Assembly: GCA_050329585.1 (NCBI GenBank)
Contig: JBHJOR010000001.1
Coordinates: 5,967-69,966 of the forward strand
From: Candidatus Methylacidiphilales bacterium
GTDB lineage: Bacteria > Verrucomicrobiota > Verrucomicrobiia > Methylacidiphilales > JBCBYL01
DNA length: 64,000 bases
Reading direction: 5' to 3'
The notes beneath the pieces are model-generated. The model searched no databases. It saw only the letters and a program-made list of their open reading frames with translations, and was not told the DNA's origin. A program made the position numbers and the translations under genes. Numbering within the stretch: the stretch's first letter is position 1; each line of letters opens with the position of its first letter. This document shows, one piece after another, positions 60,413-64,000 of this stretch.

Positions 60413-61426
60413 TTATTTGGTCGGAACTTCGGAGATGGTCTTGAGGATCCGGCTGGCGATCGCATAGGGGTCGCCTTGGGAGTTGGGACGACGATCTTCG
60501 AGGTAACCTTTATATCCATTGTTGACGAAGCTGTGGGGGATACGAATGGATGCGCCGCGGTCGGCCAGTCCATAGGTGAACTTGTCGATGGATTGGGTTT
60601 CATGGAGGCCGGTCAAACGCAGGTGGTTGTCCGGTCCATAGACCGCGATGTGCTCGTCCATGTTTTTCTCGAACTGCTTCATCAGTGCTTCGAAGTATTC
60701 TTTGCCACCGACTTCTCGCAGATGTTTGGTGGAGAAGTTGGAGTGCATGCCGGAACCGTTCCAGTCTCCGCGGAAAGGCTTACAGTGGTATTCGACATCC
60801 ACGCAGTATTTTTCGCAGAGGCGGTTCAGGAGGTAACGTGCCACCCAGACTTGATCGGCGGCGGTGCGGGATCCTTTTCCGAAGATTTGGAATTCCCACT
60901 GACCTTTGGCCACTTCGGCGTTGATACCCTCATGGTTGATACCGGCTTCCAAACACGCATCCAGATGTTCTTCCACGATTTCGCGGGCGATGTTACCAAC
61001 ATTTTGATAACCCACACCCGTGTAATATTCACCTTGTGGAGTGGGGTAACCATCCGAGGGCCAGCCGAGGGGCTTGCCGTCTTGGAACAGGAAATATTCC
61101 TGCTCGAAGCCAAACCAAGCATCAGGATCGTCCAGGATGGTGGCACGGGTGTTGGAGACGTGAGGGGTGCCGTCGGCATTCATGACTTCGCACATGACGA
61201 GAGCACCGTTTTTGCGATCCGAGTCGGGGTAAACGGCCACGGGCTTGAGCATACAGTCGGAACTGCCTCCGGGTGCCTGACGGGTGGAGCTGCCATCGAA
61301 TCCCCACATGGGCAGCTGATCCAGCTTGGGAAAGCTGGAATATTCTTCAATTTTGGTTTTGCTGCGCAGGTTGGCCACCGGGGTGTAGCCGTCCAGCCAG
61401 ATGTATTCGAGTCTGTATTTTGCCAT
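60413..61426 (-). CDS. glnII: Glutamine synthetase type II
   Basis: EYIWLDG, LRSKT, FDGSST, INAEVAKGQWEFQ, DWNGSGMH, RLTGLHET, GYLEDRRP; about 337 aa. Confidence 0.95.
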   Translation of the reverse strand: MAKYRLEYIWLDGYTPVANLRSKTKIEEYSSFPKLDQLPMWGFDGSSTRQAPGGSSDCMLKPVAVYPDSDRKNGALVMCEVMNADGTPHVSNTRATILDDPDAWFGFEQEYFLFQDGKPLGWPSDGYPTPQGEYYTGVGYQNVGNIAREIVEEHLDACLEAGINHEGINAEVAKGQWEFQIFGKGSRTAADQVWVARYLLNRLCEKYCVDVEYHCKPFRGDWNGSGMHSNFSTKHLREVGGKEYFEALMKQFEKNMDEHIAVYGPDNHLRLTGLHETQSIDKFTYGLADRGASIRIPHSFVNNGYKGYLEDRRPNSQGDPYAIASRILKTISEVPTK

Positions 61427-61522
61427 AAATAAGTAGTGTTGTTGTTGGTTGTTTTTCCTCACGTCACCTCATGCCACAGAATGCCCTGAAGGACTCCCGT
61501 GAGTTAGGTATGGATCGTATTA

Positions 61523-61539
61523 AGCACAAACGATGCCAA
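61523..61539 (-). promoter_or_regulatory. Sigma54 -24/-12 promoter for glnII
   Basis: Minus strand TTGGCATCGTTTGTGCT (TGGCA-N7-TGC); AT-rich tract at 61546-61561 immediately upstream. Confidence 0.8.
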
Positions 61540-61626
61540 TTGCCCATTTATATTTAAATTACGGGACTCCATCGATTTCCGCTGGTTCCTTGCCTCCATC
61601 CCGCGTTTCGCCCTAGGATGATCGTT

Positions 61627-62064
61627 ATGGAAGAAATGAAGGACACCCGCCGCGCTCTGGTGCGGATCAGCTATGACGGGCGGGTTTACAAGACGTTTCG
61701 TGGTCACCAGGCCCGGGAGCGTTTTGAAAATGAGGTAGCGGTCTTGCGCCACTTAGAAAAAAAAGAATGCCCGTTTGTTCCGCGGATTCTGGAAGTCGAT
61801 CCGGAAAAGCTCCTCCTGGTGACCACCACCTGCGGAAAACGGGTGGAGCATCTGAGCGATAAAAAAAAGGCTTCTCTGTTTGCCGAGTTAGAAACCTACG
61901 GGGTTCGACATGAGGATGCCGAAACGCGCAATGTGACCTATCTTGCCTCTCAAGGAAGATTCTGTCTGATCGATTTCGAGTTTGCCACCCTATTGGACGA
62001 TCCCCAACACCGTTCCCCCGTATCCTGGCCGCATGAACGCAAGGAGGAAGGTTCACATGAGTGA
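61627..62064 (+). CDS. Minimal protein-kinase-like protein (145 aa)
   Basis: VYK lysine, ENE alphaC glutamate, FVP, HEDAETRNV catalytic loop, LIDFEF. Confidence 0.75.
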   Translation: MEEMKDTRRALVRISYDGRVYKTFRGHQARERFENEVAVLRHLEKKECPFVPRILEVDPEKLLLVTTTCGKRVEHLSDKKKASLFAELETYGVRHEDAETRNVTYLASQGRFCLIDFEFATLLDDPQHRSPVSWPHERKEEGSHE

Positions 62065-62905
62065 GGCGTTAAGGCCTGATGAGGTTGCGGCTCCGATGCG
62101 CGTGAGATGGTCGGGCATGACCCATCCGGGTAAAGTTCGCAAGAATAACGAAGACTCGTTTCTGGCGCTGACCTTCAACCGGGAAACCTTCCACTATTTG
62201 GGCAAAACCGGGGAAACGTCCTTGGAAGAACACGATTTGGTTTTCGCGGTGAGTGACGGGATGGGAGGAGCCAATGCGGGAGAATTCGCCAGCAAAATCG
62301 CGGTGGAAAAAATTACACGCCTGCTTCCGAAGGCCTTTTTGAGCCGTGCGGCGGGAATCCAGCCGGGATTTACAGATCTCTTTGAACTCGTATACATGGA
62401 GATTCACCGGGCACTGACCTATTTGGGCGAGAGCTACCCCGAGTGTCAGGGCATGGGCTCGACACTGACCCTGACTTGGCTCACTCCAGGTTGGCTCTAT
62501 TTCGCGCACCTGGGTGACAGCAGGCTGTATTATTTGGCGGCGAACGGCGATTTCAAGCAGCTCAGCGAAGATCACAGCCACGTGGGTTGGCTGCGTCGGC
62601 ATGGCAAAATCAATGAGCGGGAAGCGCGCGATCACCCCGGACGCAGCTCTCTGCAAAAGGCGCTGGGCGCCGGGCACCAATTTGTGGATCCCCAAGTGGG
62701 CGCGGTGGGCCTGGAACCCGGCGACCAATTTTTATTGTGCACCGACGGCTTGGTGGATGGTCTGTGGGATCGCAATATCAAAGGTTTGCTGCGCGATCCG
62801 GATGAACGAGAAGCCTCACAAGATCCAGCACTTCGTTTGGTGCGCAAAGCGGTGGATGTTTCCGGACGGGATAACACCACCGCGTTGGTGATGGAAATTC
62901 TTTAG
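62057..62905 (+). CDS. PP2C (PPM) Ser/Thr protein phosphatase
   Basis: RKNNED, VSDGMGG, AHLGDSR, LCTDGL, GRDNTT; 8-nt overlap with the kinase gene. Confidence 0.93.
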   Translation: MSEALRPDEVAAPMRVRWSGMTHPGKVRKNNEDSFLALTFNRETFHYLGKTGETSLEEHDLVFAVSDGMGGANAGEFASKIAVEKITRLLPKAFLSRAAGIQPGFTDLFELVYMEIHRALTYLGESYPECQGMGSTLTLTWLTPGWLYFAHLGDSRLYYLAANGDFKQLSEDHSHVGWLRRHGKINEREARDHPGRSSLQKALGAGHQFVDPQVGAVGLEPGDQFLLCTDGLVDGLWDRNIKGLLRDPDEREASQDPALRLVRKAVDVSGRDNTTALVMEIL

Positions 62906-62941
62906 CAGCCTAAGCTACCACAAGGTTTCTCCGAACCTGCT

Positions 62942-64000
62942 TTACAGCCCGCGTTTCTCCATTCTGGCGCGTAGGGTGGATCGAGTGATGCCTAGAAGTT
63001 TGGCGGTGCGCACCTGATTGCTTCCGGTGCGCACCAGGGCGGCTCGAATAAATTCATCCTGTAGCCACTCCAGAAGTGGACGAGACGGATCCTTTTCAGC
63101 TGCTTCAAATAAAAGGCGAATCGCTTCCTCTTCACTTGCCAGTCCAGGGCTAATTCGGGCTGCTGAGACCACGCCCGATGAAGCGCCATCGACAGGCTGA
63201 GTCGTCATCTCAACCGAGGATGAAAGGACTTCGGATGAGCGCACTTCTAAAGGCAAGTCGGACGGAGTGATGGTATCTCCGGTAGCTAAGACCAAGGCGC
63301 GCTGAATGGTGTTCTCTAATTCCCGGACATTTCCCGGCCAGGAATACTCAGAGAGTATACGAACCGTCTCCGCCCCCAGTTTATCAGGTGCGCCGGGATG
63401 GCGTTTTTTCCATTTCTGCATAAAAAAAGCCGCCATCCTTGCGATGTCACTACGGCGTTCTCTCAGGGGAGGAAGACGGATACTGAAGACGTTCAGTCGG
63501 TAATAAAGATCCTCGCGGAATTGTTTAGCCCGGCATGCGTCCAATAGATTGCGATTGGTGGCGGCGATGAGACGCACATCGGAGTAGAGTGCTTTGTTGC
63601 CTCCCACCCGGGTGAATTCTCCCTCCTGAATCATACGTAGCAGCTTGGATTGAATGGGCAGGGGCATCTCACCGATTTCATCTAGAAAAAGAGTTCCTCC
63701 GTCGCATTGTTCAAATTTTCCGATACGCTGGGTCATCGCTCCGGTAAACGCACCTTTCTCGTGACCGAATAGTTCGCTTTCCAACAGGTTTTCTGGGATG
63801 GCGGCGCAGTTTAGAGTGATGAATGTTTTTTTTGCCCGTTTGCTGTGGGCCACCACGGCACGGGCGACCAGCTCCTTGCCGGTGCCGCTTTCTCCGGTGA
63901 TCAACACCGTGGCATCGGTGGGAGCCACTTGGCCCACCAATTTATAAACCGCCTGCATCGGGGCACTTTGACCAATCATGCCACTGTTTCCTTCATCCCC
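62942..64000 (-). CDS. Sigma54-dependent NtrC-family enhancer-binding protein (5' end outside window)
   Basis: [38 protein letters not shown]-terminal Fis-type HTH. Confidence 0.93.

Follow-up and report, generated by a model that had tools for sequence, protein, structure and literature searches.

The 64,000-nt stretch of contig JBHJOR010000001.1 from a Candidatus Methylacidiphilales bacterium that we analyzed (the window) carries at its end glnII, the gene for a type II glutamine synthetase (GSII), and two small genes that we refer to as K and P. K encodes a minimal protein-kinase-like protein and P a PP2C (PPM) phosphatase. glnII is divergent from the K-P operon, and the gene for an NtrC-type sigma-54 activator, a bacterial enhancer-binding protein (bEBP), is convergent on it, beginning 36 bp past the P stop codon (Table 1). 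The P start codon (ATG, 62057) lies inside the K frame, giving an 8-nt overlap that includes the K stop codon (62062-62064), and is preceded by AAGGAGG, an arrangement from which K and P are predicted to be translationally coupled in one operon. A preliminary description of this DNA had reported the same layout, with a -24/-12 promoter before glnII, an overlapping two-gene operon facing away from it, a PP2C partner and a convergent bEBP with a GAFTGA motif. All of these elements were recovered here, the PP2C and the bEBP by Pfam and NCBIfam matches and by reading the contig.

Table 1 Features of the glnII-K-P locus, in window coordinates.
Feature	Position	Strand	Basis
glnII (type II glutamine synthetase)	60413..61426	-	Pfam, NCBIfam and PDB matches
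Predicted sigma-54 -24/-12 promoter of glnII, TGGCATCGTTTGTGCT	61523..61538	-	Sequence motif and recurrence in related loci
K, 145-aa minimal protein-kinase-like protein	61627..62064	+	Motifs, homologues, AlphaFold2 (AF2) model
P, PP2C (PPM) phosphatase, 282 aa	62057..62905	+	Pfam/NCBIfam matches
NtrC-type sigma-54 activator (bEBP)	62942..64000, continuing to ~64417 (window coordinates)	-	REC + AAA+ (GAFTGA) + HTH_8

The glnII product belongs to the type II glutamine synthetases: Pfam found both Gln-synt_N and Gln-synt_C, and its best PDB relatives are type II enzymes (3fky, 3e-95; 4bax, 1e-94). Its score against the NCBIfam GlnII model NF041605 is 388.6 bits, under the 500-bit equivalog cut-off. 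An alternative GTG start at 61462 (frame 60413-61462) would add 12 residues; homologue alignments begin at M13, and the ATG at 61426 is therefore the likely start. glnII is the sole Gln-synt_C match in the window's genome, which is 92% complete. The predicted promoter fits the consensus TGGCAC-N5-TTGCW, with GG and GC elements 12 bp apart, and lies 112 nt from the glnII start. Of 70 related loci, 64 have an equivalent TGGCAY..TGCT element 80-140 nt before glnII, far above chance. glnII is presumably transcribed from this putative sigma-54 promoter via the NtrC-type activator.

The K frame opens at 61618 or 61627, and the ATG at 61627, which gives the 145-aa protein, is common to its homologues. 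K contains the motifs VYK (K22), NEV (E36), RHEDAETRN (HxDxxxxN; H95, D97, R101 and N102) and DFE (D116). Its 2917 homologues are 81-259 aa long, mostly ~139 aa, and their source names point to Verrucomicrobiota; among 1.84 billion cluster representatives, 302 matched K at E<=0.001. K22, D116 and F117 do not vary among 50 diverse homologues, and E36, H95, D97, R101, N102, E118 and G18 are retained in at least 90%. Conservation ceases ~8 residues past DFE, and the conserved part amounts to ~125 residues. The catalytic loop reads HxDxxxRN, with an arginine (R101) at D+4. Arginine at this position is reminiscent of the HRDLAARN of tyrosine kinases rather than the HRDLKxxN of Ser/Thr kinases. Homologues of ~139 aa are often named "serine/threonine protein phosphatase" (NCBI, several sources), which looks like a misannotation and may have been carried over from fused K-PP2C forms.

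K is placed in the protein-kinase-like (eukaryotic protein kinase-like, ePK-like) superfamily by its motifs and by two-lobe fold matches. Based on sequence and model, it appears to belong to none of the named families tested. Pfam gave no match to Pkinase (PF00069) or to RIO (RIO1, PF01163) at E up to 0.1, so that K falls outside RIO; nor is it Hanks-type, having no Gly-rich loop, activation segment or aF-aI helices, and it carries no sensor or membrane part. The only Pfam match above cut-off was to APH (PF01636; 26.3 bits, cut-off 23.2), and this was confined to K residues 74-125 at the catalytic loop, equivalent to profile positions 145-199 of 239. With 27.8 bits against the Bud32 model (TIGR03724; cut-off 125), K is also outside Bud32/PRPK. 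In the PDB, a sequence-profile search matched Cdc7 and CK2 (E ~4e-5), and these at the catalytic loop only, and a search of the ESM Atlas returned K's own clusters followed by small viral kinase-like clusters at 0.95-0.97, which we treat as leads only.

The AF2 model of K is confident, with a predicted local distance difference test (pLDDT) of 93 and a predicted template modelling score (pTM) of 0.86. In it, five strands and helix C precede one additional helix; the catalytic loop, two more strands and DFE follow, with nothing beyond. The top Foldseek match was Ark1, an RNA kinase of archaea (E 5e-7, 25% identity); Rio2, the kinase domain of a lanthipeptide synthetase, PRPK and CK2 came next. 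With VIA-align against representative structures, Rio2 (Z 12.4), Rio1 (11.9), ULK4 (11.9) and Ark1 (11.8) were tied, and Bud32 (Z 10.4) and PknB (Z 9.7) scored lower; the likeness to Rio2 spans 122 residues at 18% identity and is one of fold only. The 145-aa kinase-like protein of the preliminary description, with intact catalytic motifs but lacking the activation segment and most of the C-lobe, is thus borne out by conservation and by the model, as is its claim of an exceptionally small kinase fold. Structure comparison sets K nearest to the RIO, ArkI and Bud32 folds. These are of the same fold class, and K is smaller still. ArkI (PMC9095486) has an HGQ catalytic loop, a DFE metal loop, C-terminal helices of its own with YKR and a basic tRNA face. 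K shares the DFE and is not a member of ArkI/AQ578 as characterized there: it has HxD in place of HGQ, ends before the ArkI helices and has a near-neutral core (median isoelectric point 6.4, net charge -1).

P keeps the PP2C motifs NED, DGMGG, GDSR, SDG and DN/DD and matches PP2C_2 (1e-16) and PP2C (3e-10) in Pfam, which together assign it to the PP2C/PPM phosphatases. Its best NCBIfam model is Stp1/IreP, at 173 bits and below the cut-off of 230, and it is the only PP2C_2 match of the genome. To count neighbors, we used tblastn over 83 loci holding a K homologue, the window's own included; clustering of flanking open reading frames (ORFs) merged K with P and chose antisense ORFs over glnII, and the tblastn counts were used instead. 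In 79 of the 83 loci the gene immediately after K is P, and the other four comprise one contig end and three loci with P elsewhere. A single open frame of 424-464 codons spans the K and PP2C matches in five loci of one genus. Furthermore, among the top 150 cluster representatives, 13 are ~400 aa long and begin with K, and all 13 are K-PP2C fusions that keep the kinase catalytic residues and in which the PP2C metal-binding motifs are nearly invariant. In an AF2 model of one natural fusion (P0131, aligned with 12 others) both domains were confident; the linker (residues 126-148) had a pLDDT of ~41 and the overall pTM was 0.65, and no domain arrangement could be read. In one fusion, P0202 (401 aa), the catalytic loop no longer has its R-N pair and DFE has become NFE, without the Asp; it is a possible pseudokinase form.

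The preliminary description had held that a lack of association with nitrogen genes would count against a role in nitrogen control. The opposite was found: a divergent, adjacent glnII is present in 70 of the 83 K loci. The overall arrangement of the locus recurs in 69-79 of them, and the remaining flanking genes are not conserved. In one locus K, P and glnII all lie on one strand, and in two genomes of one genus (loci L106 and L108) P is beside glnII and divergent from it. The K gene of these genomes sits at another site, with unrelated neighbors (L094 and L095).

K and P also follow glnII in their inheritance. Of the 41 relatives, 19 carry both K and GlnII, and each of the two genes occurs in 20 relatives in all. 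Two genomes break the pattern: G025, where the search recovered no glutamine synthetase (GS) gene of any kind, and G022, which is 74% complete and has a P fragment at a contig end. P orthologues occur in the same 20 relatives, besides the fragment in G022, and only two of the other relatives have any P-like PP2C, at 32-34% identity. Of 401 sampled genomes of the phylum, 77 have K; all 77 are of one class and all 77 have GlnII. The per-family and per-genus tallies for K and GlnII are identical in this sample, and the two genes are jointly present or absent within families (f2, 2/5; f4, 2/5; f16, 27/35; f17, 3/31). Collectively, these data make a functional tie between K-P and GSII highly probable and suggest that K and P are one dedicated signaling unit of the type II GS system of this class.

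We compared this pattern with the other glutamine synthetases of the relatives. GlnII is the only GS in 16 of the 20 GlnII relatives; those without GlnII have GSI (17) or only a GSIII-like gene (3). True GlnE, defined as two strong domains in an ORF of ~900 aa, was present in 15 of the 17 GSI relatives and in none of the GlnII relatives. With GSI accompanied by GlnE and GlnII by K-P, each GS type travels with its own candidate modification system. Within this one order, the GSI-GlnE and GlnII-K-P combinations behave as alternatives to each other. Three relatives (G008, G015 and G033) have GlnII and a second GS of ~450-530 aa, without GlnE. The preliminary description had raised the presence of both glnD and glnE; glnD is in the window's genome, and true GlnE is absent from the GlnII relatives as stated above.

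Another class of the phylum contains seven genomes with GlnII and without K, their GlnII being 58-63% identical to that of the window. In all seven loci (L096-L102) a full-length Hanks-type Ser/Thr kinase of 316-423 aa is encoded directly upstream of glnII and on its strand, at a distance of ~250-400 bp. A PP2C was not seen among the flanking ORFs scanned in five of these seven loci. An hhalign comparison of K with the glnII-linked Hanks kinase gave E 0.06 over 36 columns, indicating no special kinship.

The most economical reading of these findings, and one that in our judgment is about evenly balanced between right and wrong, is that K-P could be a dedicated phospho-switch with GSII itself as the substrate. 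In this model K, a minimal ePK-like phosphotransferase, would put phosphate on Ser/Thr residues of GSII and P would take it off. The pair would thereby exert fast on/off control where GSII is the main or only GS, like GlnE adenylylation for GSI. The gene structure, catalytic residues, fold, fusions, adjacency and co-inheritance were observed directly; from them we infer protein phosphotransfer by K, GSII as its substrate and the direction of the effect. More tentatively, and somewhat short of an even chance, K-P may be the missing GlnE counterpart for GSII, its kinase the smallest catalytic core yet (~125 residues), and coupling of a kinase to GSII may have arisen more than once.

Several observations weigh against a phospho-switch on GSII. 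K is devoid of the entire substrate-binding part of protein kinases. Among its nearest folds, RIO and Bud32 act mainly as ATPases. ArkI, another of these, acts on RNA (PMC9095486). A complex prediction for GlnII with K scored 0.00 in both runs and was uninformative either way. Thirty-one positions separate 81 in-class GlnII sequences from the seven of the K-less class, and we found no Ser/Thr specific to K-linked GSII among the candidates pursued: T245 and Y256 are common to yeast Gln1. Thirteen of the 83 loci lack a glnII divergent from K-P within 1.5 kb, although in one of these K is too near a contig end to judge. The carriers, all of one class, are kin, and the counts therefore overstate independence. 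Finally, the window's genome encodes six Hanks kinases and no PP2C other than P, which could also serve these kinases. However, 14 of 18 relatives without a P-like PP2C still hold one to six Hanks kinases, which argues that P is not simply their general partner.

Metagenome contigs add to these points. We searched from glnII and kept the best 80 loci, which are 74-84% identical. K is divergent upstream in only 23 of the 66 loci with at least 700 nt upstream of glnII, four further loci have K and/or P in another arrangement, and ~39 of the 66 have neither beside glnII. In 41 of the 43 loci remaining after those 23, no kinase was found in the up to three flanking ORFs scanned; their neighbors include small DUF2735 ORFs (5), GSI (3), glutaminase (2) and other or unassigned genes. 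Probably the K-less contigs come from other phyla with a very conserved GSII. A similar GSII works without K-P elsewhere, and K-P is therefore a lineage-specific addition rather than a requirement of GSII. Among individual loci, L157 has a PP2C divergent from glnII and K downstream of glnII, and L161 has a PP2C alone divergent from glnII with no K found. The small DUF2735 ORFs, which are divergent from glnII in L198, L207, L208, L228 and L231, may be GstI-type regulators as in rhizobia.

Alternative explanations share parts of this evidence. The main rival, which we consider unlikely, holds that K is no protein kinase and instead regulates the PP2C, as a subunit or domain that binds or hydrolyzes ATP, on the model of the RIO/Bud32 ATPase switches or of RsbT activating RsbU. 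P would then be the effector, removing a phosphate written by a Hanks kinase from GSII or a GSII-linked protein. An end a few residues past DFE with no activation segment or aF-aI helices, closest folds in RIO and Bud32, and K-PP2C fusion in many lineages would all suit such a subunit. So would the six Hanks kinases of the genome and the Hanks kinase beside glnII in the other class, the two loci that keep P beside glnII with K elsewhere, and the loss of N102 and D116 from the K part of fusion P0202. On the other hand, at least 90% of members retain the complete catalytic set with the loop Asp and the R-N pair, and AF2 shows no confident packing of K on PP2C in the natural fusion. The first of these points fits phosphotransfer, but most of these residues would be required by an ATPase too, and their conservation therefore does not distinguish the two explanations. 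It is improbable, by comparison, that K phosphorylates small molecules or RNA, in the manner of APH, Kdo or ArkI kinases, and is linked to glnII through metabolism or tRNA modification. APH is the only Pfam family to score over cut-off and the RNA kinase Ark1, which also has DFE, the top Foldseek match, but K has a protein phosphatase as its coupled or fused partner, has no APH substrate subdomain and differs from ArkI in the C-terminal helices with YKR, in HxD for HGQ and in a core that is not basic. Least of all do we favor a neighborhood without functional meaning, in which K-P and glnII are merely co-carried by descent. Shared ancestry explains part of the pattern, all carriers being in one class, yet joint presence and absence inside several families, the matching K and GlnII tallies and a link kept through three different gene arrangements make this explanation very improbable.

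K-P might instead act on another nitrogen-control protein, such as PII at Ser49, the NtrC-type activator or sigma-54 factors, and on GSII indirectly; we think this rather unlikely. The preliminary description had proposed a dedicated kinase/phosphatase pair for GSII, PII or the bEBP. Its tie to nitrogen stood, through adjacency, fusions and co-occurrence; among the targets it had named, GSII follows the K-P pair in its distribution and PII and the bEBP do not. Both canonical PII proteins of the window's genome have an RGSEY T-loop with Ser49 (C57:54814-55131 and C63:73839-74153), one of their genes is 5.8 kb from the module on the same contig, in an amtB-glnK unit, and PII directly flanks P in several relatives, all of which would fit PII as a target. 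However, PII is present in 41 of 41 relatives, its T-loop GFGRQKGHTEIYRGSEY (RGSEY) is identical in 20/20 relatives with the module and 20/20 without it, and K and P follow GlnII. In addition, GlnD is present in the genome for uridylylation of Tyr51, and by ORF clustering a PII gene is found in the flanks of just 8 of the 83 loci. The PII proteins of all 40 relatives checked have Ser49 and Tyr51 (RGSEY), although GlnD is present. As for the bEBP, its adjacency to the module in the window's family favors it as a target, but it adjoins the module in that family only and an orthologue occurs in all 41 relatives, whether they have the module or not. This distribution marks the activator as the order's general NtrC orthologue, without specificity for the module.

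A direct action of K-P on GSII would have partial parallels in known systems. GlnE acts on GSI. The GlnE/GSI system resembles K-P in being a dedicated reversible covalent modification that travels with one GS type, whereas the nucleotidyltransferase fold of GlnE and its chemistry (AMP on Tyr) are unrelated to K-P, whose target would be GSII. The operons of PknB/PstP, Stk1/Stp1 and PrkC/PrpC likewise have a kinase-fold gene co-transcribed with a PP2C, and Stp1/IreP is the best model for P. K differs from the Hanks kinases of these operons in having no Pkinase match, Gly-rich loop, C-lobe helices or sensor, and K-P follows one metabolic gene. AceK, the isocitrate dehydrogenase kinase/phosphatase, is a large protein with a kinase fold that carries out both reactions on one metabolic enzyme, in one polypeptide and with one active site for both. 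K-P, by contrast, has a separate PP2C domain; here the likeness is by description, not by sequence comparison. In cyanobacteria, PII is phosphorylated at Ser49 and the PP2C PphA takes the phosphate off. K-P would resemble this system in placing a PP2C in nitrogen control, and the PII proteins here have Ser49, but the PII T-loop does not co-vary with K-P, which follows GlnII.

We know of no post-translational control of GSII in bacteria that rely on it. In the full-text literature, with subscription journals outside coverage, we found no paper linking glnII or GSII to a kinase or PP2C in bacteria, and the Global Ocean Sampling (GOS) paper (PMC1821046) handles type II GS and PP2C as separate subjects. 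Upstream of glnII, rhizobia carry the gene for GstI, a small inhibitor of GSII translation (PMC3596328). As described there, GstI resembles K-P as a GSII-specific regulator encoded upstream of glnII, and differs from it in not being an enzyme pair; it sets a precedent for GSII-specific regulators at this position. If our proposal is correct, a dedicated kinase/phosphatase pair would be a new control point of nitrogen assimilation, and a kinase core reduced to the N-lobe, catalytic loop and metal loop would test the minimal needs of the kinase fold.

The activator gene runs past the window, and we read it from the contig. The complete gene encodes a 491-aa protein with REC, AAA+ and HTH_8 domains and the GAFTGA motif (Pfam: Sigma54_activat, 3.5e-73, and HTH_8). 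Its score against TIGR01818, 370.5 bits, is below the cut-off of 558.6, and the subfamily name NtrC-type is therefore given by architecture only. Beyond it the contig carries a porin gene (BBP2), amtB, a PII gene (glnK) and then dnaA and dnaN, a stretch at ~64.8-71 kb in window coordinates (L016:10779-17022). With amtB and glnK directly before dnaA and dnaN, the nitrogen cluster adjoins the likely replication origin.

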